The notes: generated by a model not told the origin, from the letters alone. Shown: positions 2,246-24,101, numbered from the stretch's first letter. The stretch: DNA of 64,000 nt from an uncultured Thermoleophilia bacterium (GCA_963715985.1 CAVQSP010000010.1:64001-128000), one strand, 5' to 3'. Numbers and translations: made by a program.

Positions 2246-3442
2246 CTAGGCCTCTACCTTGATCACCGAGCCGGCGCCCTGGCCGCCGCCCACGCAGGCG
2301 CCGGTGAGGCCGATCTCCTGGCCACGCTTCTGGAGCTCGTGGATGAGCGTGACGATCATCCGCGTGCCGGTGTTGCCCAGCGGATGGCCGAGCGCCACCG
2401 CGCCGCCGTTGACGTTGACGATGTCCGCGTCGAGACCGAGCTCGCGAACGGCGAGTGCGGCGACGCAGGCGAACGCCTCGTTGAGCTCGGCGAGCTGGAC
2501 GTCCTTGACTGTGATGCCGGCCTTGTCGAGGGCCATCTGGGCAGCCACGGTCTCGCCGTAGCCCATGATGGCCGGCTCCACACCGGCCGTGGCGTAGCTG
2601 ACCAGCTGGGCGATGGGCTTCAGGCCCAGCTCGGCTGCCTTCTTGCGCGAGGTGACGACCAGCGCGCTGGCGCCGTCGGCGATGGCGGAGGAGTTGCCGG
2701 CCGTCACCACGCCGCCGTCCTTCTTGAAGACCGGCTTGAGGCCCGCGAGCGCCTCAGGGGTGGTCTCGCGCGGGCACTCGTCGGTGTCCACGACCTTGGG
2801 GTCGCCTTTGCGCTGCGGGATCACGACGGGCACGATCTCGTCCTTGAAGCGGCCGGACTTGATGGCCGCCGTCGCGTTGAGCTGGCTCTTGTAGGCGACC
2901 TCGTTCTGGAGCTCCTTGCTGATGCCGAAGCGCTCGCTGAGGTTCTCGGCGGTGAGGCCCATGTGAGTGCCGCCGATGGCGCACCACAGGCCGTCCTGGA
3001 CCATGGTGTCGAACATGGGCGCCGACGGCATGCCCATGCGGTAGCCGCTGCGGCCTTCCTGCAGCACCCACGGCGCGCGGGTCATGTTCTCGGTGCCGCC
3101 GACCAGGTAGATCTCACCGTCGCCGCACTTGATGGCGGCGGCCGCCATGGCGAGCGCCGAGGCGCTCGACACGCAGACACGGTTGACCGTCATGGCCGGC
3201 ACGCTGTCCGGGATGCCGGCCTTCAGCTCGGCCTGGCGGGCGACGTTCTGGCCCAGCCCCGCCTGGATCACGTTGCCGAACAGCACTTCGTCCAGCTGCT
3301 CGCCGCTGACGCCTGCGCGCGCGAGCGCCTCGGTCATGGCGAGGGCGCCGAGCTCCTGCGCCGGAGTGGCGGCGAAGCCGCCCTGGAAGCGGCCCTGGGC
3401 CGTCCGTACCGCGGAGAGAATGACGACGTCGTTGTCAGACAC
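2246..3442 (-). CDS. Acetyl-CoA C-acetyltransferase (thiolase)
   Basis: NRVC, NEAF, GHPLG and CVGGGQG thiolase motifs. Confidence 0.95.
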
Positions 3443-3548
3443 TATGGCCTCCTTGTGCCAGTCCGTGTGTGCCTGCAGCCCCCGTCGCGTTCCTTCCGCT
3501 CTGCATCACGACACATCGTTTTGACTTGCTGCTGTTCATGGTACCGGT

Positions 3549-4283
3549 TCAGTCGCCCGCTTGCCGCCGCACGACCTCCTGGGCCAGGAACGAGGCGACC
3601 TCGAGAGGCGTCGTGCGAGGGCCGAACCCCGCGTCGTACCCCAACTCCTTGGCGAAGGCGTTGTTGATGCGCGGTCCGCCGACGATGAGGACGAAGCGTT
3701 CGCGCACGCCCTCGGCCTCGAGGAGCTCGATGAGCTGCGTGAGGTGCTGCACGTGGATGTTCTTCTGGGTGACGATCTGGCTCACGAGGATGGCGTCGGC
3801 GCCGCGCTCGAGGGCCGTCTTGAGCAGCTGTGCGCAGGGGATCTGCGAGCCCATGTTGAGGGCGTCCATCTCCGGGTAGCGCTCGAGCCCGTAGTTCCCG
3901 GCGAAGCCCTTCATGTTCATGATCGCGTCGATCCCCACCGTGTGCGCGTCGCTCTCGATGGCGGCGCCGACGACGCTGAGCTTGCGGCCGAGCTTCTCCT
4001 TGATGAGCGCGTTGATGGCGTAGTAGTTCATCTCCTCGACCTCGAGGTAGTCGCCCTTCACCTCGTCCGGGTCGATGCCGGCATCGGTGCGCCCGTATGC
4101 GACGTAGAACGTGTAGTCGGGGTCGATCGCCTTGCACTCGGCGATGCCCACCGTGTGGAAGCCGAGCTTCTCGAGGAACTGCTTGCCCACGTCGGCGGCC
4201 TTGACCGAGTAGGTGATCGGAAGGGTGAACGAGAACTGGATGACGCCGTCATCACGAGTATCACCGTACGGCTTGACTAGCAT
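3549..4283 (-). CDS. kamE: Lysine 5,6-aminomutase beta subunit (cobalamin-binding)
   Basis: VKPYGDT..DG, DAHTVGIDAIMNMKG (DxHxxG plus PLP lysine), SQIVTQKN; ATG after GGAGG. Confidence 0.93.
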   Translation of the reverse strand: MLVKPYGDTRDDGVIQFSFTLPITYSVKAADVGKQFLEKLGFHTVGIAECKAIDPDYTFYVAYGRTDAGIDPDEVKGDYLEVEEMNYYAINALIKEKLGRKLSVVGAAIESDAHTVGIDAIMNMKGFAGNYGLERYPEMDALNMGSQIPCAQLLKTALERGADAILVSQIVTQKNIHVQHLTQLIELLEAEGVRERFVLIVGGPRINNAFAKELGYDAGFGPRTTPLEVASFLAQEVVRRQAGD

Positions 4284-5889
4284 CAGTGCCCCCTCCCTCT
4301 GCCGAGAGTGACGCGCCGGGCGCGGGGCCTTCGGGCGCGCCGTCCATGCGGCCCTCACGAAGCGCCGCGAAGAACGGGTTGAAGTAGTCGGCCGCGTGGC
4401 GGAACACGCCCTCGTGGCCGCGCCCGCCCTTGGGGTCGCGCTTCACGTCGGCGAACTCGCCCAGCTCCAGCGCCCTGAAGAGGCCGATGGAGCGCACGTG
4501 CTCCAGCTGATCTACGGCCTTCTGCAGCTGGTCGTTGGCGCGTTGCTCGATCATGCCGCCGGGTTTGAAGGTGATCTCGCCGGCGAGGTCGCGGCACGAC
4601 TCGAACACGTACTTGGCGTTCTTGATGCTCACGTAGCGGTCCTGGAGGAGCGGCGTGTGCAGCGCCTCGGTGAGCATCCCCAGCAACATGATCTCCTGGC
4701 CGGTGAAGATGCCGGTGAAGTTGAACATGCCGTCGATGATGTGGCCCTGGAAGATGTCGCCCGGCATGTACTTGGTGGGCGGCATGTACTTGAGGGGGTA
4801 GCCCGGGAAGAGCTCGCGGACGAGCTGGGCGTCGGCGATCTGGTACACGACCTGGTCCGGCTTGCCCGGATCGATCTCGAACGCATGGCCGAGGCCGATC
4901 TGCCACGGCTCCAGGTTGGCGCGCAGGGCGAAGGCCTCGTTGATGAAGTCCGAGCTGACCACCGTGTAGCCCTTCTCAAAGGCGTCTGCGGTGGTCAGGT
5001 AGTTGTCCTCGCCGGTGTTGATGATGATGCCGGCGCGCGCGTTGATGAGGCGCGAGAGGTACTGGTCGACGAACGTGCGCTCCATGTTGATGTTGCGGAA
5101 GATGATGCCGTACATGGAGTCGTTGAGCATCATGTCGAGGCGCTCGAGCGCCCCCATGGTGGCGATCTCCGGCATGCAGAGGCCGCTGGCGTAGTTGCAC
5201 AGACGCACGTAGCGGCCGAGCTCCTCGCCGACGTCATCCAGGGCGGCACGCATGAGGCGGAAGTTCTCCTGGGTGGCGTAGGTGCCGCCGAAGCCCTCCG
5301 TGGTCTCGCCGTAGGGCACGTAGTCCAGCAGGCTCTGCGCTGTGGTGCGGATGACGGCGATCACGTCGGCGCCGGCGCGCGCCGCCGCCTTGGCCTGCGC
5401 GGCGTCCTCGTAGATGTTGCCGGTGGCGACGATGACGTACACGTAGGGCTTCACGGGCTCGCCGACCTCGGCCACGAGCTCGTTGCGCCGCCGCCGCACG
5501 GCGTCGATACGCGCCACGCCCTCGGCGGCGAGCTCGGCGGCGCGCGCGTCCACGGCCTCGCGCCGTTCGGCCGCCACTGCAGCCAAGGCGAGGTCGCCGC
5601 CGGCGACGCCCTCGGCGACCTCCTGGGCACTGCGTCCCGTCTGCAGCATGACGTCGACGAAGGGCCGCATGATGCCGCCCGGCAACAGCTCGCGCGCGTG
5701 CTCCGCCACGACGTTCACGAGGGGCACATCGATCTCGTTGACGCCGGCCACGCCGAGCAGCCGCAGCGTCGCCCGCTCGGTGCTGTCCGTGGTGTGTGCG
5801 TCGATGTGTTTCTGGATGTCGTCGGCCACGGCCTCGGCCGCCGCGCGGGCGCGGCCGACCAGGCCCTGGTCGAGACGGAGCGCGTCCAT
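4261..5889 (-). CDS. kamD: Lysine 5,6-aminomutase alpha subunit
   Basis: YVIVATGNIYED, TEGFGGTYATQENF, NYASGLCMPEI, NTGEDNYLTT, KYMPPTK. Confidence 0.93.
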   Translation of the reverse strand: MDALRLDQGLVGRARAAAEAVADDIQKHIDAHTTDSTERATLRLLGVAGVNEIDVPLVNVVAEHARELLPGGIMRPFVDVMLQTGRSAQEVAEGVAGGDLALAAVAAERREAVDARAAELAAEGVARIDAVRRRRNELVAEVGEPVKPYVYVIVATGNIYEDAAQAKAAARAGADVIAVIRTTAQSLLDYVPYGETTEGFGGTYATQENFRLMRAALDDVGEELGRYVRLCNYASGLCMPEIATMGALERLDMMLNDSMYGIIFRNINMERTFVDQYLSRLINARAGIIINTGEDNYLTTADAFEKGYTVVSSDFINEAFALRANLEPWQIGLGHAFEIDPGKPDQVVYQIADAQLVRELFPGYPLKYMPPTKYMPGDIFQGHIIDGMFNFTGIFTGQEIMLLGMLTEALHTPLLQDRYVSIKNAKYVFESCRDLAGEITFKPGGMIEQRANDQLQKAVDQLEHVRSIGLFRALELGEFADVKRDPKGGRGHEGVFRHAADYFNPFFAALREGRMDGAPEGPAPGASLSAEGGGTDASQAVR

Positions 5890-5896
5890 CAGTGCA

Positions 5897-7033
5897 TCAC
5901 CTGCTTTCGAGTCGGGAGAGGTCGCGTCGGGAGGGCGCGCCGTCCGGGAGCGAGGCGCGCGCGTTGACGACGTCGAACACGGGCACGCGGTCGCCGATGG
6001 CCCCGGCGACTGCGTTGAAGAAGACCTGGGGCTGGTACGGCTGCGGTACGCGGAACGGGTTGGCGGTGACGGCGAGCACACGCAGTGGCGTAAGGACCTC
6101 TACCGTCACGCCTCGTCGCACCAGCCTGGCCACGTGCGCCGGGGGAAGCACGAGCACGGTGGCGTCGCGCACCACCAGGCGCAGCGTGCGGCGCGGCGGC
6201 AGCACGCGCGTGAAGTCGTCTACGAACTCCTGCGTGAGCGCCCCGCCCACGTAGAGCGTGCGTGTGTCCAGACGCGTGACCGCGCGAGCCACCGTGACGC
6301 CTTCGCCCACCACGGTGTCCACCTGCAAGGGCACGGCGCTACGGCGCCCGTCGAACGAGACGGCGCGGGCCTGCCGCGCGACATACGGCTCGAGCAGCGT
6401 GCGCGTCTCGGCGTCGACGGCGGACAGCATGAGCATGTCCACGGCCGCCGCCGTGGCCTCGAGTACGTCGTCGAGCGTGTCGCCGACCATGCCGCCGGTG
6501 GCCAGCACGACGCCGTCGCTCACGCGTGGTGACGCGCTGCCGATGCGGTTGATGGCGCCGTCCACGAGCACCTGCTCGGCGCCGTGGGCCTGGAGCCGCT
6601 CGATGGTGACGTGCAGCTCGGCGAGGGTGGTGGGCCCGCTGACCTCCACCTCGCCCTTCCCGGCGCGCCCGATGACCACCCGACCGAGCGGCGTGTGGAA
6701 GGGCAGTTCCTCCAGCACCTCCATGGCGTAGTGCGAGCGCTCCAGCGAGCCCTGTGTCGTGGCGATCAGGGTGCCGGGCGGAGGCGAGATGCGCGGCTTC
6801 GCGAGGCCGGTGAGGTGATCGGTCCGCTCACCGTCGAGACCGAGCGACGTGAGCCCGAAGAGGTGAGACGAGTTGGCCATCAGCGCGTTGACCACGGTGG
6901 TCTTGCCGGCGTTCTTCACGAGCCCGATAACGGCCAGCGAACGGCTGCCGGAGGCGGCGATGATGTCGTAGAGGGCGTCGACGGTGGCGGCGTCGGGCGG
7001 TGCGCTGCCGGCGGCGCGGAGCGGGCGGGTCAC
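5897..7033 (-). CDS. kamB: KamB-like lysine 5,6-aminomutase accessory/reactivase subunit
   Basis: IGLVKNAGKTT P-loop, TSLGLDGE, TPLG, DGAINR; directly upstream of kamD. Confidence 0.7.
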   Translation of the reverse strand: MTRPLRAAGSAPPDAATVDALYDIIAASGSRSLAVIGLVKNAGKTTVVNALMANSSHLFGLTSLGLDGERTDHLTGLAKPRISPPPGTLIATTQGSLERSHYAMEVLEELPFHTPLGRVVIGRAGKGEVEVSGPTTLAELHVTIERLQAHGAEQVLVDGAINRIGSASPRVSDGVVLATGGMVGDTLDDVLEATAAAVDMLMLSAVDAETRTLLEPYVARQARAVSFDGRRSAVPLQVDTVVGEGVTVARAVTRLDTRTLYVGGALTQEFVDDFTRVLPPRRTLRLVVRDATVLVLPPAHVARLVRRGVTVEVLTPLRVLAVTANPFRVPQPYQPQVFFNAVAGAIGDRVPVFDVVNARASLPDGAPSRRDLSRLESR

Positions 7034-7779
7034 GTCGTGCCTCCCGCATCGTCGGCCACCGCGTCCGCGCGCGCAGCGCCCGCCGGCGCGCCGGTGGCTG
7101 CACCGTTCGCCGTGCCGTTCGCTCCCGTGCCGCGGCGGATCTCCTTGAGGTAGCTGAAGATCGTGTACCGCGACAGGTCGAGCGCCTCGGCGACCTGCTC
7201 GGCAGAGCGCTTCACGAGGAAGGTGCCGCGCTCCTCCAGCCGCTTGACGACCTCCATCTTCTCTTCGCGCGACATGGCGGCCGGCGTCTTGCCCATCTCC
7301 CCGAGGATGGTGGTGACCATGCCGGCGACCACGTCGCGGATGTCGCCGGCGAAGATCTCGGCCGCCTCGGGCACGGCCTCACCCCCAAGGCGGCCGACCG
7401 CGGTGAGGTTGGCGAGGGCGCGCTGCGCCTGAACGATCTCGGAGATGTCCACGTTCAGGCCCAGCAGCCCCAGCGGCCGGCCGTCCTCGTCGCGCAGCGT
7501 CACCGCCAGCGACTTGAGGAGCTTGCCGTCGTGCGTCGTCAGGTACAGGCGCACGTCGTTGGCCTCGTCGGCGTTGTGGAGGTTGCGGAGCATGCGGTCG
7601 GTGGGCGCGTCCCCCACCGTGCGACCGGTGACGGCACCGTTCTCGATGGCGACGATGGAGTGCGGCAGCTGCGCGACGTCGTGGAGCACCACTTCGCAGT
7701 CCTGGCCGAACAGCTCGGCGAGGCCTCGCACGACGGGCAGAAAGGCACGAAGACGCGGATCGAGGTGCTCTCCGGGCAC
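7030..7779 (-). CDS. YheO/DauR-like PAS + HTH transcriptional regulator
   Basis: CEVVLHD, IENGAVTGRTVG, LEERGTFLVKRSAEQVAEALDLSRYTIFSYL. Confidence 0.9.
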   Translation of the reverse strand: MPGEHLDPRLRAFLPVVRGLAELFGQDCEVVLHDVAQLPHSIVAIENGAVTGRTVGDAPTDRMLRNLHNADEANDVRLYLTTHDGKLLKSLAVTLRDEDGRPLGLLGLNVDISEIVQAQRALANLTAVGRLGGEAVPEAAEIFAGDIRDVVAGMVTTILGEMGKTPAAMSREEKMEVVKRLEERGTFLVKRSAEQVAEALDLSRYTIFSYLKEIRRGTGANGTANGAATGAPAGAARADAVADDAGGTT

Positions 7780-7845
7780 GTCGCCCTCCGGTCGGCCCGG
7801 CGTGGCGCCGGGCGCCCCAAGGCGCCGGTGCGTCCTTGGACGTCA

Positions 7846-12664: not shown

Positions 12665-13705
12665 GTGAGCACGCTCCCCGGCATGGAGGCGATGCTGTAC
12701 GAGAAGCTGGCCGACGGGGAGGTGCAGTGCCACGTCTGCCCGCGGCTCTGTCGCATCGCGCCCGGCAAGAGCGGTGTGTGCCGGGCGCGCCACAACGCCG
12801 ACGGCACCCTCATCGCCATCACCTACGGGCGCGTGTGCAGCGTGGCCGCCGACCCTATCGAGAAGAAGCCCCTGTACCACTTCTTCCCCGGTACCACCGT
12901 GCTCTCGCTGGGCAGTGTGGGCTGCAACTTCACGTGCCGGCACTGTCAGAACTGGCAGATAGCGCACGCCGACCCCGGCGAGGCGGCGCGCGATCTGCGC
13001 GAGCTGCCGGTGCGTAACCTGCCGGTGCTGGCCGACCATAACGACTGCCAGGGCGTTGCCTGGACCTACAACGAGCCCACCATCTGGCTCGAGTACATCC
13101 TGGACGGCGCCCAGCTGGCGCACGAGCACGGCCTCTACACGGTGATGGTGACCAACGGCTACATCACCGAAGAGGCGCTCGACGTGCTGGCGCCTCACAT
13201 CGACGCCTACCGCGTGGACGTCAAAGGCTTCACCGACGACCAGTACCAGGAGTTGTGCCGTATCCGCGACATGTCCCCGGTGCTGGCCGCAGCCGTGCGC
13301 GCTCAGGAGGTCCACGGCTGTCATGTGGAGATCGTCACCAACGTGATCCCCACGTTCAACGACGACGACGAGACCCTTCGCGGCATCGCGGCCTGGATCG
13401 CCGCCGAGCTCGGTCCCGACACGCCGTGGCACGTGACGCGCTTCATGCCGTATCTCGAGTACGCCCATCTCTCGCCGACGCCGGTCAGAACGCTCGAGCG
13501 TGCGGTGCACGTCGGGCGCGACGCCGGCCTGCGTTTCGTGTACCTGGGCAATGTGCCGGGGCACGAGGGCGAGAACACGATGTGCCCCAACTGCAGGCGG
13601 CTTCTGGTCAGGCGCACCGGCCATGCGGTTGAGGATGTCGCGCTGCGGGGAACATTCTGTGCGATGTGTGGGGCCAACGTGCACATTCGCACCTCCATCA
13701 AGTGA
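12665..13705 (+). CDS. amrS: AmmeMemoRadiSam system radical SAM enzyme
   Basis: CHVCPRLC, DPIEKKPLYHF, GCNFTCRHCQNW, YNEPTI, YLGNVPG, CPNC. Confidence 0.92.
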   Translation: MSTLPGMEAMLYEKLADGEVQCHVCPRLCRIAPGKSGVCRARHNADGTLIAITYGRVCSVAADPIEKKPLYHFFPGTTVLSLGSVGCNFTCRHCQNWQIAHADPGEAARDLRELPVRNLPVLADHNDCQGVAWTYNEPTIWLEYILDGAQLAHEHGLYTVMVTNGYITEEALDVLAPHIDAYRVDVKGFTDDQYQELCRIRDMSPVLAAAVRAQEVHGCHVEIVTNVIPTFNDDDETLRGIAAWIAAELGPDTPWHVTRFMPYLEYAHLSPTPVRTLERAVHVGRDAGLRFVYLGNVPGHEGENTMCPNCRRLLVRRTGHAVEDVALRGTFCAMCGANVHIRTSIK

Positions 13706-13751
13706 CGGACGTATTGGCGCGTTGACGTTCGGACGGATAGGATTCGACCCC

Positions 13752-14174
13752 GTGAACGACTACGTGAAGATGGACATTCCCGCCAAGGCCGAGTACGTGG
13801 TGCTCGGCCGCCTCGCGCTCGCGGGCCTGCTGCGCTCCCGCGGCTTCTCCGAGGACGCCGTGGCGGACCTCAAGCTGGCGCTCACGGAGGCGTGCTCCAA
13901 CTCCGTGCGGCACGCCTACGACCACGACCAGGGTCAGGTGCACCTGGGCTTCACCGTGCACCGGGACCGCGTCACCATCGAGATCCGCGATGAGGGCGGC
14001 GGGTTCCACGAGGACGACGTCGACTGCCCGGAGTGTCAGGGCATGCCGGAGATCCACCTGGCCGAGGGCGGCATGGGCATCTCCATCATCCGCGCCGTCG
14101 TGGACGACTTCGATCTGCGTCGCGGGGACGGCGGCGGCACCGTGCTCGTGCTCACCAAGCTGCGCGACCTCTGA
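13752..14174 (+). CDS. RsbW-like anti-sigma factor / Ser kinase (HATPase_c_2)
   Basis: PAKAEY, DLKLALTEACSNSVRHAY, DEGGG, EGGMG. Confidence 0.88.
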   Translation: MNDYVKMDIPAKAEYVVLGRLALAGLLRSRGFSEDAVADLKLALTEACSNSVRHAYDHDQGQVHLGFTVHRDRVTIEIRDEGGGFHEDDVDCPECQGMPEIHLAEGGMGISIIRAVVDDFDLRRGDGGGTVLVLTKLRDL

Positions 14175-14361
14175 CGGCTCGCGCCGTCGCCTCCCGCCGC
14201 ATCCAGCCGCTGGGCGCCTCCGCTCCCGGTGCTGCGTCCCCGGCCGGCTGAGTCTGCTGCGTGCCACCGGGGTTTAGCCCTGCGCCGCCTTCTGGGAACA
14301 ACCTGAGTCAGTGAAGGTGTGGGGCGCGCCGGCGGCGGGCCCCTCGGCGGGAGGTCCCGGC

Positions 14362-16466
14362 GTGGTGAAGACCCTGCAGCAACCGGTCCTGGCGCACGTG
14401 CTCTTCGACGAGGCGCACGGCGAGGCGTGGTCGATCCGCCCCGAGGCGGCGGCCCAGATGCGCCCTGAGCATCCCGCTGCCGCCTCGTACGCGGTCGCGG
14501 CCACCGCGCTCGCGGAGCGGGACTTCGCGGTGGCCGTCCACCCGTCCGGCCCCCTGGAAGGCGAGGCGCTCGCGGCCGCCGACGTGCTCGTCATCGCACA
14601 TCCCTCCGACCCGGCCTGGGAAGGCACGCTCGGAGGCTCGCCGCGCCTCTCCGGGCCGGAGATCGACGCGGTGGAGGAGTTCGTGGGCCGCGGCGGCGGC
14701 CTGCTGGTGCTGGGCGAGACGGAGCAGCGCAAGTACGGCGACAACCTCAACGACCTGCTGGCTCGGTTCGGCGTCCGGCTCGACAACACCACGGTCTTCG
14801 ACTACGCGGGATCCCCGGAGGCGCCCACGTGGGCGCCGGCTGTCGCGGAAGCGACGGCCGCCGCGCCGGCGCTGCTGCATCTGGTGAGGGAGTCACGCTT
14901 CTATCGCGCCGGCTCGCTCACGGCCGACGCGCCCGGAGCTGTGGTGCTGCGCACGGGCGCGCACGCAGCGCCTGCAGGCGCCGCCCTTCTCGCGGCCGTG
15001 ACCCACGGCCACGGCCGCGTGGTGGTCGCGGCCGACTCAGACCTGTTCGGCGACGACTTCCTCACCAGGCACGACCACCTGCAGCTGTGGCTCAACGTCT
15101 TCTACTGGCTGGCGCGCCCCGCCTTCGCCGGCGAGGACGGTGCGCTGGCTTCGGACGCCGCTGCCGACCCGTGGTGGGCGCGGCTGCGCGACGAGACCGA
15201 CGCGCTGCGCCTCCTCCAGGAGCCGCGGGGCGAGGTGGATGGAACGGCCGTCGACGCGCAGGTGGTGCGCGGGCACGTGGACGTCATGGTCGAGGCCGTC
15301 CAGGCGCTTGCACCGCGCTTCGCACACCAGCGCGCCTACCTCGAGCAGGTGACCCGCGACCTGCGTGCCTGGGTGGACGGCGGCTGCGGCCGCCCGGACT
15401 TCGGCGCGTCGCTCGAGCTGCTCAGGCCGGAGCGGGAGCGCCGCGACGGGGTCGAGCACCTCGTGGTGCTCCCGCTCTACACGCCCAACGGGTCGCCGGA
15501 CACGCGCTTCGAGGCGCTCCTGGTGCGGACCCCGTGGCCGCCGTTCGTGGATCAGCTCGAGCGCACCGAGTTCGACAACGGCAAGTTCGTGCCGGTGCAG
15601 CTCGTGGACCACACGGCGGGGTACGCCGGCGAATGCGCCGTGCTCTTCCCCGAGACGGTGAGCCTGTCGGGGCGCCCGAGCAACAACTTCGGCGCCATCT
15701 TCTGCGATCGCGAGTCCCGCCGCTTCCGGCGTACGACGTTGGCAGCCGCGGAGGTGCTTCACCTCGACCTGCCGCCGGACGCCGCCGCCCTGGTCAGCTC
15801 CCCCGAGCTCTCCCTGCAGACGTACATCCTCTGGGACCTCATCCACGACCGCTGGCACAGCCACGGCGATCTGCCCTTCGACCCGTTCATGATCCGCCAG
15901 CGCCTGCCCTACTGGATGTACTCGCTGGAGGAGCTGCGCGTGGACCTCGCGACCTACGGCAGCGCAGGGGAGCTGGCGCGTCGCGGCTTCCACTTCGCGA
16001 GGTACGTGCAGTACGCGATCCTCTTCGACCGCATCCTGCGCTTCCCCATCACGGGCTCGCGGGTGCGCAACTACGACGGGCTGGGCGGCCAGCTGCTCTT
16101 CGCCTTCCTGCACCGCCGTGGCGCCGTGGCGTGGACCGACAACAGGCTCAGCATCAGCCTGGGACCAGGTGGACGACGCGGTCGCCGAGCTGCGCACCCG
16201 CGTCGACGACCTGTACCGGCGCGGCATCGACCTGAGCAAGAGTGGCCTACTGGGCGGCGGCGCACGACCTGGTGGCCGAGTCCGTGGAGCCCAACGTGGC
16301 CTCGCTGTGGCGCCGCGAGGCGCGCGTGGTCTCCGATGAGGCGGAGCCGCGCGAGTGGGTGGACCGCGTGCTCGACGACGAGTTCCCGCTCAGCACGTTC
16401 TACCTCGCGCTGCAGAAGAAGCTGGCGGAGGCGGCCGGGCCGCCGGCCGCACCGGCCGCCGTATGA
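14362..16466 (+). CDS. DUF6421-family protein with extra N-terminal domain (frameshifts near 16156 and 16241)
   Basis: AVLFPETV, IFCDRE, WDLIHDRWHSHGDLPFDPFMI, RNYDGLGGQLLF. The reading continues through ORFs 16118-16339 and 16242-16466. Confidence 0.75.
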
Positions 16467-17182
16467 CGCACGGCACCGTCGCGGGGCTGGCGGGCGTCTT
16501 CGGCCTCGACGACCTCCAGGTCGTGGCTCTGGACCGCTACGTCGACCTGCTGCTGGCCTGGCGCGGCAACGTCACCGGCCTCACCACGCGTGACGAAGTC
16601 GTGGGCACCTTGCTGGGCGACGCGCTGGCGCTCCTGGACGTCGACGCGCTTCGGGAACGGGCCGGCGCCCCGTGGGTGGATCTGGGCGCCGGCGCCGGCA
16701 TCCCCGGCATCCCTCTCGCTGTGGCCGAGCCCGCCGCCAGAGTGACGCTCCTCGAGGCGGCGTCCCGCAAGTGCGCGTTCCTGGAGGCGGCGGTCGAGGC
16801 CGCCGGCCTGGACGACCGCTGCGTGGTGGAGTGCGCGCGCAGCGAGCGATCTGCGGCGGCCGGCGCGGCGGGCCGTGAGGCGTACGCAGTCGTGCTGGCG
16901 CGCGCCGTGGCGCCGCTCCCGGTCCTTGTGGAGCTGGCCGCGCCGCTGCTCGCGTCCGGCGGCGTGCTGCTGGCCAGCAAGACCGGCCGCGCTCTGCGGG
17001 ACGAGGGCCCGGCTGCCGAGGTCGTGGCCGGTCTGTGCGGCATGGCGGCGCGGCCGCCGCAGGCGCTGCCGCGCTCCCCGCTGGACGACGCCGTCTGTGC
17101 GCTGTTCGAGAAGGTGGAGCCGACGCCCGCGCGTCTGCCGCGGCGTGAAGGCCAGGCCGCCAAACGGCCGCTGGCTCGCTGA
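16463..17182 (+). CDS. rsmG: 16S rRNA m7G527 methyltransferase RsmG (GidB)
   Basis: DLGAGAGIPGIPLA, RKCAFL, ARAVA, PRREG; upstream of parA. Confidence 0.9.
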   Translation: MTHGTVAGLAGVFGLDDLQVVALDRYVDLLLAWRGNVTGLTTRDEVVGTLLGDALALLDVDALRERAGAPWVDLGAGAGIPGIPLAVAEPAARVTLLEAASRKCAFLEAAVEAAGLDDRCVVECARSERSAAAGAAGREAYAVVLARAVAPLPVLVELAAPLLASGGVLLASKTGRALRDEGPAAEVVAGLCGMAARPPQALPRSPLDDAVCALFEKVEPTPARLPRREGQAAKRPLAR

Positions 17183-17998: not shown

Positions 17999-18938
17999 GA
18001 AGGCTCTGGGCCGAGGTCTCGGGGCCCTCATCGGTGACAGCAGGGCGGCCTTGGCGCGCGGTGGGTCCGGGGGCAGCGAGAGTCGCCTGCGCGAGCTGCC
18101 GCTGGCGGAGATCGCCGTGAACCGTCGCCAGCCGCGCCGCACGTTCTCCGCCGACGAGCTCGACGAGCTGGCAGCCTCCATCAAGGCGCTCGGCGTGGTG
18201 CAGCCGGTGGTCGTACGGCCGCTCGCGGCGACCGCGGTGGACGCGCCCGGCGCGGGAGCACCCGCGGCGGCCGGCGCGGCTCCGGCCGGAGCCGCCGCGC
18301 CGCGTTTCGAGCTCATCGCCGGCGAGCGCCGCCTGCGGGCCGCCCGGCTCGCCGGCCTCGAGAGCATCCCGGCCCTGGTGCGGCCCGCCGACGAGGTCGC
18401 CTCTCTGGAGATCGCGCTGGCCGAGAACGTGGCGCGCGAGGATCTCAACAGCATCGAGGAGGCGCAGGCCTACGCCGCGCTCGTGGACGAGTTCGGGGTC
18501 ACGCACGAGCGCGTGGCCGAGCTGGTGGGGCGCAGCCGCGTGGCGGTGACCAACCTCCTGCGCCTGCTGGAGCTCCCCGACGATGTGCAGCGCATGCTCG
18601 AGCAGGGCGAGCTGAGCGAGGGACACGGACGCGCGCTGCTGGCCCTGCCTGACCACGAGCAGCGACGCAAGATCGCGCGGCTGGTGGTCGCCCAGGGCCT
18701 GTCGGTGCGTCAGGTCGAGGCGCTGGTGCGCAAACTCAACGACGAGGCGGCCGGCACGGCGCCTGCGGCGCGCCCGCCCGCCCCCGACTTCTCCGATCTC
18801 GTGGACGAGCTCTACGGCGTGCTCGAGGCGCCGGTGCGCATCACCAGCGGGGCGCGCGGCGGGAGTATCCAGATCGCCTTCAAGAGCAAGGCGGAGCTGG
18901 AGCGCATCGTCGCGCTTCTGCGCTCTCTCGGGGTCTGA
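17988..18938 (+). CDS. parB: ParB/Spo0J
   Basis: ALGRGLGAL, QPRRTF, IAGERRLRA, ENVAREDLN, GRSRVAVTNLLRLL, GHGRALL. Confidence 0.96.
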   Translation: MTDKKALGRGLGALIGDSRAALARGGSGGSESRLRELPLAEIAVNRRQPRRTFSADELDELAASIKALGVVQPVVVRPLAATAVDAPGAGAPAAAGAAPAGAAAPRFELIAGERRLRAARLAGLESIPALVRPADEVASLEIALAENVAREDLNSIEEAQAYAALVDEFGVTHERVAELVGRSRVAVTNLLRLLELPDDVQRMLEQGELSEGHGRALLALPDHEQRRKIARLVVAQGLSVRQVEALVRKLNDEAAGTAPAARPPAPDFSDLVDELYGVLEAPVRITSGARGGSIQIAFKSKAELERIVALLRSLGV

Positions 18939-19000
18939 CGCTCCGTCGCTGGGGGGCGACGCGACACGACTCCGCGCGTCGCGCCCGCGCGCTCCCCGCC

Positions 19001-19585
19001 TCAGGGCGCGGGCGCCTGGTCCGGGGAGACCGTGATGCCGACCGACGGTGTGGTGGGGGCCGGCGTCGGCGTCGTCGCGTAGGGATCCGTGGTCGGATAG
19101 TCGGTCGTGGTCGGATACGGCGTCTCCGTCGCGCCCGGCGTGGTCGTCGTCTCCCCGCTCGGGGTGGAGCCGGGCGGTACGGACCCGGCGGGCACGTAGA
19201 CCACCGTGCCGTCTGCGAGCGTGTAGAACGCGCCCAGCAGCGTGCCCACGCCCGTGATCTGCGCCCCGCTGTTCATGTCGAGCTTCGTGATCTGGTCACC
19301 GTCCTTGACGACCACCTGCATCTCGGGGGTGCCCGGGTTGGTGACGATCGTCATGGTGTCGCTGGTCAGGAGTCCGGTGATGCCCGCCGCGGTCAGCGCC
19401 GCCACGAGGAAGCCCACGGCGAGAACGATGGCCACGTCGAAGAGGTTGACGATGCCGTCCAGAGGATCTCCATTGCGGTCGGCCGTGCCGACGCGCCGCC
19501 GGCGCATGTAGCGCAGCCCGGTCGCCGGCGCCTCGTAGATGCTGCCGACGTCGTGGAGGGTGGGGTGGTCGTCAGAAGCAGGCAC
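19001..19585 (-). CDS. DUF2149 protein (ExbD/HmuV-like) with Pro/Thr-rich tail
   Basis: DPLDGIVNLFDVAIVLAVG, TIVTNPGTPEMQVV, GTLLG.FY.LADG.VVYVP. Confidence 0.85.
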   Translation of the reverse strand: MPASDDHPTLHDVGSIYEAPATGLRYMRRRRVGTADRNGDPLDGIVNLFDVAIVLAVGFLVAALTAAGITGLLTSDTMTIVTNPGTPEMQVVVKDGDQITKLDMNSGAQITGVGTLLGAFYTLADGTVVYVPAGSVPPGSTPSGETTTTPGATETPYPTTTDYPTTDPYATTPTPAPTTPSVGITVSPDQAPAP

Positions 19586-19594
19586 GCGGCCCTC

Positions 19595-20683
19595 TCACCG
19601 GCCCCCGGACGAGCCTCCGGCTCCGGGGGCGGGCCCGGCCGGCGGCTGGGGGTCGACGGGGCCCAGGTCCGCGAACGGGTCGTCGTCGCGGTGCCAGCTC
19701 ATGGAGGGGTCGTCGAAGGTGAGCGGCGACGCCTCCGCGGCTGTCTGCGCGCCCTTGATGGTCGCCGGGGCCGCCGCCGTGTCGGCCGCCGCAGCGGCGC
19801 CGACCACGGGCATGCTCTGTGTGGGGTTCTCGGCCTCGAGGCTCGCCGCCTCCGGCTGCCACGCCGGCTGGGAACCGGCCGCGAGAACGGCTCTGCCGCC
19901 ATTGCCGGAGGCGACCGGCACGAGCGGCTCCACGGGCACCTCGTCCAGCACCGGGATGACCATGCCGCGCTCGACGTCCGCGCCGTCCACGACGTAGTCG
20001 ATCTCCGGGTCGGCGTCCCACACGCCCTTCTTGTTGCGCTTGCGCCCGGAGCGCAGCCTGCCGCTGCCGCCCTCGAGGAGCTCGAGCAGGTACTCCATGT
20101 CGGAGATGTCCTGCGAGTACATACGGTCGCGGACGATGCTGATGACGAAGGCGATACCGCCGATGAGCAGGCCGATCACCGTGACCGAGAAGGCGGTGAC
20201 CAGGTTGTCCGCGAGCGCGGTGGTGTCGCCGGTGGCCAGGCCGACGAGCGCCGGGGAGAGCGGGATCAGCGTGCCCATGAGGCCGAGCATCGGGCCGATG
20301 CGCACGAGGATGCGCGTACGCTCGAGGCGCTTGACCGTGTAGAACTCGTACTCCTGGAGCAGCTTGAGCGGCTTGGCCGCGAGCCGCTGGGTCTGGTAGT
20401 TGCGGATGAGGTCGAACAGGAACCGGGCCACGATGAGCGAGTAGTTGTTCTCCTGCAGGTAGCGGTAGGCCGTCCGCGGCTTGCCGTCCTCGAACGCCCT
20501 GCGGGCCCGGAGCGTGCGCGCCTCGAGCGCGTCGAGGTCGCGGTAGCGGAACCGCAGGTACAGCTCGTAGAGGAAGAAGCCGAACTCGATGAGCACCCAC
20601 ACGAGGCACAGCAGCGCGGCGATGAGCACGGGCCACAGAAGCACCCGCGAGATGTTGTAGATGACCTCTTGGAGGCCGTTCAC
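19595..20683 (-). CDS. MotA/TolQ/ExbB proton channel protein
   Basis: RIGPMLGLMGTLIPL and AFSVTVIGL; three TM segments; long acidic disordered tail. Confidence 0.9.
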   Translation of the reverse strand: MNGLQEVIYNISRVLLWPVLIAALLCLVWVLIEFGFFLYELYLRFRYRDLDALEARTLRARRAFEDGKPRTAYRYLQENNYSLIVARFLFDLIRNYQTQRLAAKPLKLLQEYEFYTVKRLERTRILVRIGPMLGLMGTLIPLSPALVGLATGDTTALADNLVTAFSVTVIGLLIGGIAFVISIVRDRMYSQDISDMEYLLELLEGGSGRLRSGRKRNKKGVWDADPEIDYVVDGADVERGMVIPVLDEVPVEPLVPVASGNGGRAVLAAGSQPAWQPEAASLEAENPTQSMPVVGAAAAADTAAAPATIKGAQTAAEASPLTFDDPSMSWHRDDDPFADLGPVDPQPPAGPAPGAGGSSGGR

Positions 20684-20690
20684 GCTTCTG

Positions 20691-22523
20691 TCATCTCCCC
20701 GCCGGTTTGAAGATGTCCTTGACCTTGGCGAGCGACCCCTTGAGGCGGTCCCAGGCACTGCCGCCGCCGGGCAGGACCTTGCCCTCACTCGCCTCGCCCA
20801 GCGCGTGCTCGCGACGGTTGAGGACGAGGTAGGAGATCAGGGCGCCTATCGGCAGCATCGCGAGCAGGGTACCACCGAGGAAGCCGGCCGCACTACCCGT
20901 GCCTCCGTCCGCGGTACCCGACGCCTCCGCGCTGCCCGACGGCGTCGGCGAGCTGACCGGCGTCCCGCTGATCGGGTACCCGCTCTCGTAGGGTGACGGC
21001 GTGGTCGTCGTCTCCGGCGAGGGCTCCGGCGTCAGCGTGGGGTAGGGATAGGGCGTCGTTGGATACGGCTCGGGCGTGGACGTGGTGGGCGCAGGCGTCG
21101 GAGTGGGGTAGATGGTCGGGGCCGGGATGTAGGTCGGCAGTACGGTCGGGACGGGGATGGGCGTGGGCACCGCGACCACGAAGCTGCGCTCGACTCTCTT
21201 GATGTTGCCCGCGTAGTCCACGATCTCCAGGCGGTAGGTGTGCGCGCCGTTGGGCACGTTCTTGAGCTGCAGGTGCAGCGCGTGCGCACCGATGTCAGCC
21301 GGCTTGGTCCGGTCCGTGCTGTCCACGAAGACGCGGCACTTCTTGGGGTTCACGCCGGTGCCCTTGGTCCCGTCAGTGTAGGTGGCTCGTATGAGCACTG
21401 TGTTAGAGGCGTATTTGACGCCGTTGCGCGGCGATGTGGTGAGCACTCTGGGCTTGAACACGAACGCCTTGAGCGCAGGGGGCCTCGTGGCGGGGTACGT
21501 CGTGAACGGCTTGTCGCGCAGCGCGGTGATGGCCCAGGCCGTGGTGGGCAGCGGGGAGCTGGAGTCGCCCTTCCTCTTGAGATACGCCCCCGTCTTCTGC
21601 TGGAGGGCGGCGAGGGCGGTGCGCGGCGTGCCGGAGCCCATCGCCCAGAGGGCATCGTCGGGCGTCTCGCCGAGGGCGAGGATGGCCTGGATGGCGGCCG
21701 CCGTGGCCTCTGCGTCCGTGCCCTTGTCGGCTACGAGGGGGAAGCCGCCGTCCGCGCTCTGGCTGGTCTTGAGGAACTGGCGCGCCGCGGGCAGGACGGC
21801 CGCGTCCACCGTGCCCTCCGCAGTCAGCGTGAGGGCCTGGATGGCGAGCGCCGTGTCCAGGCAGTCCGACGAGAGGCTCGCCTGCGCCGGGAAACCGCCG
21901 TCCTCCTTCTGCTGGGTCGCAAGCCACCTCCCGGCAGCCCTGAAGCGGTCGTTGTCGGTCACGCCCATGGCCTGCATGGCGAGGAGCGCCCAGTTGGTGG
22001 TGTGGACGGCCTTGAACTGGCGGTCGGAGGAGGCCGGCGAGAAGCTGCCGAACGTCTCCGAGCCCTCGACCATGTCCTGGTAGCTGTAGAGCTCGGCGAG
22101 GAGGTCCACGTGCGGCGTGCCGGCGACGAAGACCCGGTCCGCCTGGTCCGCCGCCACGTATGAGAGGATCGCCTGCGCGTAGTAGACCGGCGCGTTGTCG
22201 GAGTCCGTGCCCGTCGCAGCTTTGGCGTGGTCGTTGGCCTGGAGATAGGAGAAGGGGTTCTTGCCGCCGACGGTCCACATGGATGAACCGATGCGCTCGC
22301 CGCTGGCCACGGCGCCGATGATGACCCATTCGGTGGCGGCCATGGAGCCGAAGCCGCCGTCGGCCTTCTGCTGCGCGTGGAAGTAGTCGAGACCTCTGGT
22401 GACGGTCCTGGGACGGGGGTCTGTCTGTGTGTCGCGCCTGACGGCCGCGGCTGTGGCGACGAGGCACGCCGCCAGTGCGGCGGCAAGCGCGAGCGCCAGC
22501 CAGATCTTCCTGCCCATGCGCAT
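20691..22523 (-). CDS. Cell-surface protein with prenyltransferase/squalene-oxidase (alpha/alpha toroid) repeats, Ig-like domain, P/T linker and C-terminal TM
   Basis: Signal peptide; QxxDGGF repeats (QKADGGF, QKEDGGF, QSADGGF); beta-rich segment; PTPTP linker; TM followed by basic residues. Confidence 0.8.
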   Translation of the reverse strand: MRMGRKIWLALALAAALAACLVATAAAVRRDTQTDPRPRTVTRGLDYFHAQQKADGGFGSMAATEWVIIGAVASGERIGSSMWTVGGKNPFSYLQANDHAKAATGTDSDNAPVYYAQAILSYVAADQADRVFVAGTPHVDLLAELYSYQDMVEGSETFGSFSPASSDRQFKAVHTTNWALLAMQAMGVTDNDRFRAAGRWLATQQKEDGGFPAQASLSSDCLDTALAIQALTLTAEGTVDAAVLPAARQFLKTSQSADGGFPLVADKGTDAEATAAAIQAILALGETPDDALWAMGSGTPRTALAALQQKTGAYLKRKGDSSSPLPTTAWAITALRDKPFTTYPATRPPALKAFVFKPRVLTTSPRNGVKYASNTVLIRATYTDGTKGTGVNPKKCRVFVDSTDRTKPADIGAHALHLQLKNVPNGAHTYRLEIVDYAGNIKRVERSFVVAVPTPIPVPTVLPTYIPAPTIYPTPTPAPTTSTPEPYPTTPYPYPTLTPEPSPETTTTPSPYESGYPISGTPVSSPTPSGSAEASGTADGGTGSAAGFLGGTLLAMLPIGALISYLVLNRREHALGEASEGKVLPGGGSAWDRLKGSLAKVKDIFKPAGR

Positions 22524-22736
22524 CCTTTTTGCGTGGCCCGGGCGAGTGCGCGAGCTGAGCGCCATCGTACCAAGGCCCTTGGGCCGCGGCCACCGCTCGC
22601 GGCAGGCTCGCGGGCTTGTCCCGGGGACGCGCGCCCGCCCGCCGCGGTTCGCCGCGGCCCCTGCGCGCGCCGCCGGCCCCCGGAATATCCGTCTAGGGGG
22701 GTTCACTTTCGGGTGCCTGCGACCGACACGCACCGT

Positions 22737-23006
22737 ATGAGGACCAGTGCCGACAGAGGACGGCTGGACGAACCGGAGGGCGAGGTCGAGTTCTTCGGCT
22801 TCAAGCTCACCGTTCGGAACCCGCGTCTCGCGGAGCTGTTGAACAGCAGCGAAGACGAGGACGTCCGGGTGGTCGACAAGGGCGGCGCGGAGGCGGTCGC
22901 GCCCGAGGCGGCGGAGCCGGCCGTCCCGCGAGCGCCGGTGTGCCGCGGCGAGGAAGTCGGCGACGTATCGGTAGTGCGCCTCAGGCCGGCCCGCGACGAC
23001 GTCTGA
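22737..23006 (+). CDS. Small hypothetical protein (89 aa)
   Basis: ATG start, GC-biased third positions, fills the gap ahead of the GT operon. Confidence 0.55.
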   Translation: MRTSADRGRLDEPEGEVEFFGFKLTVRNPRLAELLNSSEDEDVRVVDKGGAEAVAPEAAEPAVPRAPVCRGEEVGDVSVVRLRPARDDV

Positions 23007-23048
23007 GTCTGAGTCCTCGCCTGCGAGGATGTATCCTTGGGAGCCGAC

Positions 23049-24101
23049 ATGGCTTCCCTTCTCTCACTGGTCATCCCCGTCTACAACGAGGCGGAGAGCC
23101 TCGAACCGCTCGTCGCCGAGATCGACGAGGCGCTCACGGCTGCCGGCCTGGCCTTCGAGATCGTCTTCGTGGACGACGGCTCCAGCGACGGGTCGTTCGC
23201 CGTCATGCAGCGGCTGGCGACGGCGCGCCGCGACGTACGCGTGGTCAAGCTGCGTCGCAACTTCGGCAAGGCGGCGGCCCTCTCCCACGGCTTCGAGGTG
23301 TGCCGTGGTGACGTGGTCGTGACGCTCGACGGCGATCGCCAGGACGACCCCGCCGAGATCCCGCGCCTGGTGGCGCGCCTGGACGAAGGGTACGACCTCG
23401 TCTCGGGCTGGAAGCAGAGCCGCCAGGACCCCATCAACAAGACGCTGCCGTCGAGGTTCTTCAACTGGACGGTGCGGCGTACCACGGGCCTGCCGCTGCA
23501 CGACTTCAACTGCGGCCTCAAGGCGTACCGCCGCGACGTGGTGGACACCATCCACATCTACGGCGAGCAGCACCGCTACATCCCGGTGGTGGCGTCGCAA
23601 GCCGGGTTCACGGTCGCGGAAGAGCGCGTCAACCACCGCCGCCGCACGGCCGGGGTCTCCAAGTACGGGTGGCAGCGCTACCTGCGCGGCTATCTTGACC
23701 TGACCACGGTGTTGTTCCTCGGGCGCTACCAGCACCGTCCCCAGCACCTGTTCGGCGGCATCGGCACGCTGCTCATCCTCATCGGGCTTCTCGTGGAGCT
23801 CTACCTCACCGTCGACAAGATCGTGTTCGGCAACCCCATCGGGCAGCGCCCGCTCCTTCTCCTGGGGGCGCTGCTCATCATCGTCGGCGTGCAGCTGCTC
23901 TCGCTCGGCCTCATCGGGGAGCTCATCGCCAACTCGAGGGCACGTGAGGGCCCGGACACGCTGCAGGTGGCATGCATCGTAGAGGCGGCCGCCCCTGCCG
24001 CGATCCCCGCCGCGGGTCGGCCCGTCGCGATGGACGCGATGGGGGACGCTCATGCGGGGGTCGCCACGCCGGCCGCACCGGGCGCCGCCGACACGCCGTG
24101 A
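23049..24101 (+). CDS. GT2 polyprenyl-phosphate glycosyltransferase (ArnC/DPM-like)
   Basis: IPVYNE, VDDGSSD, RNFGK, LDGDRQD, HDFNCGLKAYR; two C-terminal TMs. Confidence 0.92.
   Translation: MASLLSLVIPVYNEAESLEPLVAEIDEALTAAGLAFEIVFVDDGSSDGSFAVMQRLATARRDVRVVKLRRNFGKAAALSHGFEVCRGDVVVTLDGDRQDDPAEIPRLVARLDEGYDLVSGWKQSRQDPINKTLPSRFFNWTVRRTTGLPLHDFNCGLKAYRRDVVDTIHIYGEQHRYIPVVASQAGFTVAEERVNHRRRTAGVSKYGWQRYLRGYLDLTTVLFLGRYQHRPQHLFGGIGTLLILIGLLVELYLTVDKIVFGNPIGQRPLLLLGALLIIVGVQLLSLGLIGELIANSRAREGPDTLQVACIVEAAAPAAIPAAGRPVAMDAMGDAHAGVATPAAPGAADTP

Follow-up and report, generated by a model that had tools for sequence, protein, structure and literature searches.

ExbB/ExbD-driven nutrient capture is regarded as the answer of diderm bacteria to an outer membrane that is not energised. 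What, then, might a pair of this kind be doing in a bacterium that belongs to the single-membrane Actinomycetota, where its genes lie next to that of a secreted protein with an alpha/alpha-toroid domain? This question is raised by a locus of an uncultured Thermoleophilia bacterium in which a toroid protein, an ExbB-like protein and a DUF2149 protein are encoded one after the other (the triad). The triad occupies positions 19001-22523, on the minus strand, of a stretch of 64,000 nt with a G+C content of ~70% (the window), which is part of a genome that is 88.8% complete in 22 contigs and that has a single MotA_ExbB gene, a single DUF2149 gene and a single toroid gene. The three open reading frames (ORFs) are co-directional and separated by gaps of 7 nt and 9 nt, and a GGAG/GAGGG-like stretch lies ahead of each GTG; a scan of 18800-23150 returned no promoter-like site and one terminator-like site versus 1.1 expected. 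The genes are as follows:

20691..22523, minus strand: the toroid protein gene, 610 aa (ORF, Pfam and NCBIfam)
19595..20683, minus strand: the ExbB-like gene, 362 aa, with a GTG start backed by an alignment of homologues
19001..19585, minus strand: the DUF2149 gene, 194 aa (Pfam 77.5 bits, alignments)

A sequence-only reading of this DNA had described a tight operon encoding a secreted QxxDGGF-repeat protein with a Pro/Thr stalk and a C-terminal transmembrane (TM) helix, a member of the MotA/TolQ/ExbB family, and a DUF2149 protein with an Asp in its TM segment (NLFDV), and this description held. It had also suggested that the three proteins possibly capture a corrinoid or another tetrapyrrole; this gained ground in relatives outside the genus, where a cobalamin riboswitch was found in 5/5 and DUF4430 together with energy-coupling factor (ECF) genes in four, and lost ground in the window itself, which has neither riboswitch nor DUF4430. 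The triad is very probably homologous to the last three genes of B12-controlled clusters. There is about an even chance, in our judgement, that it supplies the surface binder and the motor of a Thermoleophilia system for nutrient capture, which serves the uptake of B12 (corrinoid) in the relatives and the ligand of which is possibly no longer B12 in the window.

The B12 link is found in the relatives. In the genomes G060, G049, G440, G441 and G442, the cluster is immediately preceded, on its own strand, by a cobalamin riboswitch (RF00174, 60-85 bits), which heads the toroid-ExbB-DUF2149 unit in every one of the five relatives tested outside the genus; in the last four of these genomes, it is the only one found genome-wide. 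In G060 (locus L035), a riboswitch of 77.4 bits immediately precedes the genes for a DUF4430-like protein, the toroid protein, ExbB and DUF2149, with no ECF genes within ~8 kb. In G049, the contig coordinates put the aptamer just ahead of the first gene, while in G440, G441 and G442 the riboswitch stretches were joined to the cluster loci by sequence overlap, the first secreted-protein ORF starting ~50-100 nt past the aptamer in G441 and G442. The gene order in G049, and likewise in L082, L083 and L091, runs from the riboswitch through DUF4430(+SLH) proteins, CbiQ/EcfT, a double ABC ATPase and an S-component-like protein to the toroid protein, ExbB and DUF2149. CbiQ/EcfT and the double ABC ATPase (EcfAA') are present in L032 (the G049 locus), L082, L083 and L091, and the S-component-like protein (DUF6580/ECF-ribofla_trS) was found in L032 and L082. 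The DUF4430 matches in the same operon have E values of 1e-9 to 1e-14 in these four loci and a weak one (E 0.07) in L035; two of the upstream DUF4430 proteins in G049 carry SLH domains and others have lipoprotein-like leaders. A single-sequence PDB search with the lipoprotein-like DUF4430 protein of L082 returned nothing meaningful.

CbiC, a marker of corrin-ring synthesis, is found in none of the five riboswitch-type genomes (it is present in the window's own genome and in G031, and absent from G015). The simplest reading is that the relatives' cluster is a corrinoid uptake system of B12 auxotrophs, and the corrinoid idea is strongly, if indirectly, supported because the riboswitch is there in five relatives out of five and DUF4430 and the ECF genes are there in four. 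A separate observation concerns the G060 locus, where a second cobalamin riboswitch (L035, 12835-12966, plus strand) is divergent from the toroid cluster and is followed, at 13054-17156, by an unusual B12-regulated pair consisting of a 705-aa protein without a family and an RCC1-repeat/collagen-repeat protein.

Clusters of this composition have a published counterpart. The available part of one report gives DUF4430 as the C-terminal domain of the vertebrate transcobalamins, or TCN proteins (PMC4350170). An ECF operon of L. sakei (Lsa1836-1840) encodes secreted proteins for which the beta and the alpha domain of transcobalamin served as models; the one of the alpha type also resembles geranylgeranyltransferase, and the operon was proposed to import heme or cobalamin (bioRxiv 10.1101/864751, in the portion accessible to us). 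L032/G049, L082, L083 and L091 similarly unite toroid, DUF4430, EcfT and EcfAA'. In contrast, the L. sakei operon, as described in that portion, has no ExbB/DUF2149 genes and has heme as a proposed ligand, whereas the Thermoleophilia clusters add the cobalamin riboswitch and the motor pair, and their toroid protein adds a stalk and a C-terminal TM helix; the window itself is without ECF and DUF4430 genes. In binders of the transcobalamin type, the corrinoid is sandwiched between an alpha6/alpha6 barrel and a DUF4430 beta module. By analogy, the relatives' clusters might be compared with transcobalamin, intrinsic factor and haptocorrin, with which they would share an alpha/alpha-toroid module, a DUF4430 module and, through the riboswitch, a connection to B12, but the toroid has no sequence-level match to these binders, and the two modules are on separate polypeptides. 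A further comparison is with SCO2321/SCO2322 of Streptomyces: the NCBIfam model SCO2321_fam matches the window toroid with 68 bits and its G049 orthologue with 95 bits, scores that are far under the cut-off of 300 bits, and the SCO2321 gene is followed by that of a C-terminally anchored (GPS-CTERM) protein, SCO2322. No ExbB/DUF2149 genes were seen beside the one such locus examined (L157), which is annotated only in part.

The toroid protein starts with a hydrophobic, signal-like segment, after which four parts can be distinguished:

21495..22403, minus strand: toroid domain, about residues 41-343, with three QxxDGGF-type repeats and the stretches matched by Pfam
21168..21494, minus strand: Ig-like domain, about residues 344-452, matched by Big_13 in 30/37 and by Big_7 in 13/37 family members at E<=1
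20886..21167, minus strand: Pro/Thr-rich stalk, about residues 453-546, taken from the sequence and poorly conserved in alignments
20694..20885, minus strand: C-terminal TM helix from residue 547 (GFLGGTLLAMLPIGA...) and a cytoplasmic tail of ~43 aa (GGGS.W.R.K)

The repeats read QQKADGGF from residue 51, QQKEDGGF from residue 204 and SQSADGGF at about residue 255. Weak Pfam matches, near or above their cut-offs, were to Prenyltrans (32.8 bits), SQHop_cyclase_N (33.3 bits), SQHop_cyclase_C and TED_complement (22.8 bits). The 352 metagenome homologues found at E<=0.001 in a collection of 5.8 billion proteins are all unnamed or generically named, as in 'terpene cyclase/mutase family protein' and 'prenyltransferase/squalene oxidase repeat-containing protein'. 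A profile search of the PDB gave class II terpene cyclases (8zg0, 7xr7) at E 1e-18, squalene-hopene cyclase at 7e-12, RabGGTase beta at 8e-5 and the TED of complement C4 at 1e-3, all of them over the repeat region only. An intact cyclase or prenyltransferase active site was what the sequence-only reading had held to be incompatible with its proposal, and none was found: among 37 toroid family members, neither DxDD, the catalytic motif of class II terpene cyclases and squalene-hopene cyclase, nor CxEQ, the thioester motif in the TED of alpha-2-macroglobulin and complement, occurs even once (at the position equivalent to DxDD, the window has SSDCLDTA and most of the family SNCEDTA), and no Cys column is conserved at >=90%. 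The zinc site of the protein prenyltransferase beta subunit includes a conserved Cys. Because DxDD, CxEQ and a conserved Cys are all missing, the toroid is predicted to be non-catalytic. H49, H99 and several Trp are conserved across the 37 homologues. The proposed likeness to the transcobalamin alpha domain is drawn from the genomic context and from the L. sakei modelling. A search of the ESM Atlas with one homologue (P0025) returned its own clusters and, beyond them, only Shr-like heme-binding proteins at 0.75, too low to serve as a lead.

Outside the toroid domain, it is the C-terminal TM helix and the tail that are conserved best (GG.LLAMLPIGA..SYL..RR...GGGS.W.R.K), far more so than the adjoining stalk. 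In the 37 sequences, G550, G551, L553, L554, L557, G560, Y565, R571, G588, S589 and W591 are invariant, as are P558, G560, S564 and R570 over 15 more divergent loci. This conservation fits a specific contact in the membrane, which could be with the motor or with some sorting factor.

The features of the presumed motor pair are the following:

20069-20683, minus strand: three-TM core of the ExbB-like protein, residues 1-205, highly conserved in the alignment
19598-20068, minus strand: low-complexity cytoplasmic extension of the ExbB-like protein, residues 206-362, taken from the sequence
19190-19462, minus strand: small extracytoplasmic domain of the DUF2149 protein, residues 42-132, from alignments
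19436-19438, minus strand: GAC codon of the TM Asp D50 (NLFDV), from the sequence and from hhalign against ExbD D25

The ExbB-like protein matches Pfam MotA_ExbB with 32.1 bits (cut-off 22.9). BLASTP aligns it with E. coli ExbB over TM2-TM3 at E 1e-4, GLMGT falling on GLFGT and SVTVIGL on LATAIGL; these Thr-bearing motifs, which are invariant across 15 loci, correspond to the conserved Thr of the last two TM helices in E. coli ExbB, which we take to be T148 and T181. The core is 91% identical to that of the nearest relative and has very many invariant columns across the clade. As to the extension, it ends in a genus-conserved LTFDDPSM.W.RDDDPFA.LGP and is absent from the G049 orthologue. The DUF2149 protein (Pfam cut-off 27.1 bits) consists of a short cytoplasmic N-terminus, a TM segment with D50, an extracytoplasmic domain and a Pro/Thr-rich tail. 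A profile built from 15 diverse DUF2149 proteins (ORF L036:7876-8901, a miscalled ABC permease, having been dropped) shows no variation at N47 and D50, and hhalign places LFDVAIVLAVGFLVAAL on ExbD 23-40, with D50 on D25, at E 0.0025 and a probability of 11.7%. The ExbD/TolR family has its essential Asp close to the end of the TM helix that faces the cytoplasm. The TM Asp is kept in 73 of 84 distinct DUF2149 sequences over all loci, that of the window included. Judged from these alignments, the pair appears ExbB/ExbD-like in its membrane part, while DUF2149 is not demonstrably a member of the ExbD family.

The resemblance to the Ton system lies in a MotA/TolQ/ExbB subunit with the TM2/TM3 Thr motifs, in a single-TM partner whose Asp hhalign puts, with a low probability, on ExbD D25, in a Pro-rich spacer in the presumed force-receiving protein and, for the relatives of the window triad, in the uptake of scarce nutrients that include B12 and heme. 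There are also differences. The partner is DUF2149; the candidate transducer has its anchoring TM helix at the C-terminus, the reverse of the TonB topology, and itself carries the binding domain; and the importers in the relatives are of the ECF or ABC type. Moreover, the models for TonB_C, Omp85 and CobN (CobN-Mg_chel) had no match in the 88.8%-complete genome, the families of TonB-dependent receptors not being among those searched, which agrees with the earlier statement that TonB and a CobN-like gene are missing from the window.

The pair also resembles part of HmuSTUV of the Bacteroidota, in which HmuS is a CobN-like heme dechelatase. In the P. gingivalis hmu operon, HmuU belongs to MotA/TolQ/ExbB and HmuV to DUF2149, and the equation of the ExbB-like/DUF2149 pair with HmuU/HmuV, made in the sequence-only reading, is confirmed in print (PMC11681262). 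Their role is assumed in the accessible text of one paper (PMC12583661) and called unclear in that of another (PMC12094164). The tetrapyrrole context is shared as well, and the four-gene set of CobN-like, DUF2162, ExbB and DUF2149 genes occurs in low-GC Actinomycetota (L061). In contrast, the window genome is without CobN, neither CobN-like nor DUF2162 genes are present among the 29 window ORFs scanned, and the partner of the pair is a toroid surface protein.

The surroundings of DUF2149 were compared in 18 loci from the genomes that carry G handles and in 80 loci from named genome records; the latter were found with two DUF2149 peptide patterns and are consequently biased to Thermoleophilia-like DUF2149. 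An ExbB-like ORF precedes DUF2149 in 74 of the 80, and a further upstream ORF is present in 57, of which 41 end in a C-terminal TM helix. Pfam assigned toroid families to 18 of these 57 ORFs, PKD to 22, other families to 3 and none to 14. The contexts are:

Context A: CobN-like, DUF2162, ExbB and DUF2149 genes, Hmu-like, in low-GC small genomes
Context B: toroid, ExbB and DUF2149 genes
Context C: a secreted PKD-domain protein with a C-terminal TM helix, ExbB and DUF2149, inside importer operons
Context D: a few others, with no recognisable cargo

Scans of context A found DUF2162 in L061 and CobN-like genes in L061, L062 and L064. In the heme type of context C, the heme-binding HtaA is directly upstream in L103, L104 and L114 (two HtaA plus the PKD cargo), and FecCD and ABC_tran were found in L114. 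In others, PBP_like_2 is upstream of the PKD cargo (L092, L108, L133, L140), with BPD_transp_1 downstream in L133, L140 and L036 and ABC_tran in L140. The C-terminus of the PKD-type cargo has a different yet conserved pattern, LG.GA..E.R, and cultivated strains of Conexibacter and Aeromicrobium, among them Aeromicrobium stalagmiti, carry this PKD-type version. One genome of the class, G324, has five DUF2149 copies in different contexts (L052-L056), one of which adjoins two ~840-aa proteins without a family and an SLT/M23 peptidoglycan hydrolase. On the technical side, tblastn with the window toroid missed the divergent toroid of L035, which Pfam found.

DUF2149 is present in 32 of 36 genomes of the same genus, in 4 of 24 from other families of the class and in 17 of 401 sampled Actinomycetota genomes (the window's own counted); the genomes are metagenome-assembled and of varying completeness. 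The order toroid-ExbB-DUF2149 is kept in 14 of 15 in-genus loci, between parAB and a glycosyltransferase (GT) cluster, although among these 14 the genes of L048 are fragmented, and the toroid match of L049 is limited to residues 2-452. In the four in-genus genomes without DUF2149, there is no toroid and no MotA_ExbB match either, while a control genome that has DUF2149 (G015) matches both. Because all are absent together, the three genes behave as one unit that is gained or lost as a whole, and the conservation of the triad across genomes, on which the sequence-only reading had staked its proposal, is borne out. Two loci show irregularities: in L048, the ExbB and toroid matches are divided over frames; in L078, the alignment of the toroid protein (5124-6974) is lost over ~150 residues and then regained, as from a double frameshift, and Thr replaces the Asp of DUF2149.

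Several results weigh against the extension of a B12-linked, motor-driven capture system to the window. The absence of a cobalamin riboswitch upstream of the triad, already reported from the sequence alone, was upheld: Rfam gave no family at threshold in the window and none at E<=5 in 22400-23150, nor did it give a hit in nine loci that share the parB/glycosyltransferase synteny. The riboswitches within the genus are on other contigs or, on shared contigs, >90 kb from the triad (G007, G015, G022, G024, G027, G031), and the two of the own genome head CobU-CobT, CobS, CobD/CobQ, CbiX, CysG/HemD and CbiMNQO. DUF4430 has no match in the own genome; neither has DUF6580, a blank that is weak because the model matched none of the control genomes. 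As regards the toroid, no transcobalamin or other cobalamin-binder chain is among the 46 PDB hits at E<=1, and the Pfam family of eukaryotic cobalamin binders (presumably PF01122) matched none of 37 family members at E<=1. As regards the motor, Pfam ExbD does not match DUF2149 at E<=10, the hhalign probability quoted above is low, and the TM Asp is replaced (by T, N, Y, L or V) in 11 of the 84 sequences, all in the window's genus, which makes an obligatory proton motor there hard to square. In addition, L046/L067, the one exception among the 15 in-genus loci, is a second copy of the pair that has no toroid gene beside it, L079 is a triad with neither ECF genes nor riboswitch within 8 kb, and the loci were annotated with a crude gene caller based on third-position G+C (GC3).

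The window lineage has genes for cobalamin biosynthesis and would, from its gene content, make its own B12. The CbiQ genes of this genome are on other contigs, and no ECF genes flank the triad. Within its cobalamin biosynthesis cluster, CbiC is in two adjacent pieces (G000:C8:30590-31175, profile positions 1-115 and 112-195), which points to a frameshift or an assembly error.

How could the window have come to differ from the relatives? In the ExbB tree, the riboswitch/ECF-type rows are at the base of, and among, the toroid clade, and the window's clade (10 rows, support 100/99) is nested within it. This suggests that the window arrangement is derived via loss of the riboswitch/ECF context. 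The tree was midpoint-rooted on the branch to the CobN-type rows, its root is not established, its backbone supports are 82-92, and L035 is on a long branch. One locus of a record titled Deltaproteobacteria bacterium MAG (L070) has a triad that falls inside the Thermoleophilia genus clade on a near-zero branch; its contig is probably mis-binned or mislabelled.

Binders of the transcobalamin type hold B12 extremely tightly, and mammals free the vitamin by proteolysis. In the nutrient-capture system that we favour, the toroid would be the counterpart of the alpha domain of such a binder, placed on a Pro/Thr stalk and anchored by its C-terminal TM helix. The ExbB-like and DUF2149 proteins would form an ion-conducting complex of the ExbB/ExbD type, with an ion path that runs past the TM Asp of DUF2149 and the TM2/TM3 Thr of ExbB. 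Ion flow may then do work on the TM helix and stalk of the binder, which would be opened or moved in such a way that a very tightly held ligand is passed to the importer. The motor might pull the alpha-like module off a wall- or lipid-anchored DUF4430 module, a release that would be analogous to that brought about by TonB-ExbBD acting on BtuB in diderms. What is encoded here would be a Ton-like motor variant in the uptake systems of monoderms, with a function in the window itself that is uncertain. Since the window triad is uncoupled from riboswitch, ECF and DUF4430, its present ligand and its need for energisation are uncertain too. A bolder version, which we advance tentatively and consider less likely than not, is that monoderm Actinomycetota have Ton-analogous force transducers at large: an ExbB/DUF2149 motor would pull or turn the C-terminal anchor of stalked receptors (the transcobalamin-alpha-like toroid for B12; PKD-type receptors in heme HtaA operons and in solute-binding-protein ABC operons) and would strip ultra-tightly bound nutrients from wall-anchored DUF4430-SLH partners for delivery across the thick wall to importers of the ECF or ABC type. 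The window copy would then be a riboswitch-free derivative.

Other explanations may be considered. One, which is unlikely, is based on the gene neighbourhood: in the window lineage, the toroid would bind a polyprenyl-linked or wall-associated molecule and work with the GT cluster, and ExbB/DUF2149 would serve the maintenance of the envelope in a Tol-like manner instead of nutrient uptake. One flank of the triad is gidB-parA-parB, and the other is a small conserved ORF followed by a divergent cluster of GT2, GT1, LPG_synthase_TM, DUF2079 and a PIG-V-like protein. The synteny of parA-parB, triad, small ORF, GT2, GT1, LPG_synthase_TM and DUF2079 extends over the 14 of 15 in-genus loci and recurs in the more distant L086, L087, L089 and L090. 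Also in favour of this explanation, the toroid is most similar in sequence to enzymes that bind isoprenoids, the Pro/Thr stalks are plausible targets of O-glycosylation, and the window lineage has no riboswitch, ECF or DUF4430. However, the GT genes are divergent from the triad, and synteny near an origin-proximal parAB may, among close relatives, be mere inheritance. Moreover, the triads of the relatives sit in B12-riboswitch/ECF clusters without GT genes, and no catalytic or lipid-binding motif was identified in the toroid.

Another possibility, which we hold to be distinctly unlikely, is that the ExbB-like/DUF2149 pair itself takes the captured ligand, or its metal, across the membrane as a channel or translocator, a role already hypothesised for HmuTUV, and that the toroid only delivers. 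The L035 cluster, with its lack of nearby ECF genes, and the tolerance of Asp loss in some species would be in keeping with this. Yet a second translocator would not be needed where a complete importer is already encoded, and there is a complete ECF importer in the same operon in four genomes and complete ABC importers in PKD-type loci; the TM2/TM3 Thr and the TM Asp, furthermore, match features of ion-conducting ExbB/ExbD. We know of no member of the MotA/ExbB family that translocates substrates, which also counts against this explanation.

The triad might also be a relic, left over from an uptake cluster in a lineage that produces its own B12, without an important present function and drifting to loss. 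Nothing is left of the riboswitch, ECF and DUF4430 context, the genome has cob genes for de novo synthesis, 11 sequences of the genus have another residue in place of the Asp, the whole triad was not found in 4/36 genus genomes, and L048 looks fragmented and the L078 toroid frameshifted. This is nevertheless improbable: the three ORFs of the window are intact with short coupling gaps, the ExbB core is conserved to the extent given above, the anchor and cytoplasmic tail are strongly conserved, and copies without the Asp are still in intact triads (e.g., L044 and L045). Finally, it is highly improbable that the toroid is an enzyme, i.e., the terpene cyclase or prenyltransferase of automatic annotation, a candidate suggested by the names of the homologues and the PDB matches at E 1e-18 and rejected on motifs (no DxDD, no conserved Cys for a zinc site), given also that the matches are confined to the repeat region and that the protein is secreted on a stalk, away from isoprenoid diphosphate substrates.

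The HmuU/HmuV pair and an ECF system with split transcobalamin-like proteins have each been published. Full-text searches, which do not cover subscription journals, turned up no account of the two combined, of cargo anchored by its C-terminus, of control by the riboswitch or of an extension, in monoderms, to heme operons and to ABC operons with a solute-binding protein. The Ton components of monoderms are probably non-functional leftovers, according to the accessible part of one survey (PMC12204202). Here, single-membrane Actinomycetota have the ExbB-like/DUF2149 pair in ECF operons under a B12 riboswitch, in heme operons and in ABC operons with a solute-binding protein, in each case beside a stalked surface protein with a C-terminal anchor. 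This suggests that ion-driven motors may serve the uptake of scarce nutrients in bacteria that lack an outer membrane, too. If the motor does act on these proteins, this would explain how a ligand is released from a transcobalamin-like binder without proteolysis, would provide a function for DUF2149/HmuV, the role of which the Hmu literature still describes as unknown, and would add a new task to those of the 5:2 motors (ExbBD, TolQR and MotAB type), in which five ExbB-like subunits enclose a dimer of the Asp-bearing partner. The cultivated carriers of the PKD-type version are a concrete test system.

Some further observations concern the rest of the window. The small ORF between the toroid gene and the divergent GT2 (22737-23006, plus strand, ~89 aa, core EVEFFGFKLTVRNPRLAELL) has no family assigned; tblastn located it at the same position in 17 of the 42 related loci searched, among them L086 and L087, which are more distant. 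At 14278-16590 (plus strand), just upstream of gidB-parA-parB, there is a gene for a large protein with DUF4350/ABC_transp_aux-like and DUF6421 domains. At 2249-7842 (minus strand) lies a lysine-fermentation-like block made up of a thiolase, KamDE, a 493-aa ORF without a family and a YheO-like PAS/HTH regulator. The KamDE pair had been noticed from the sequence, and the family scan of the window ORFs recovered both of its subunits:

4264-6099, minus strand: Lys-AminoMut_A (D-lysine 5,6-aminomutase alpha)
3552-4442, minus strand: OAM_dimer/B12-binding subunit

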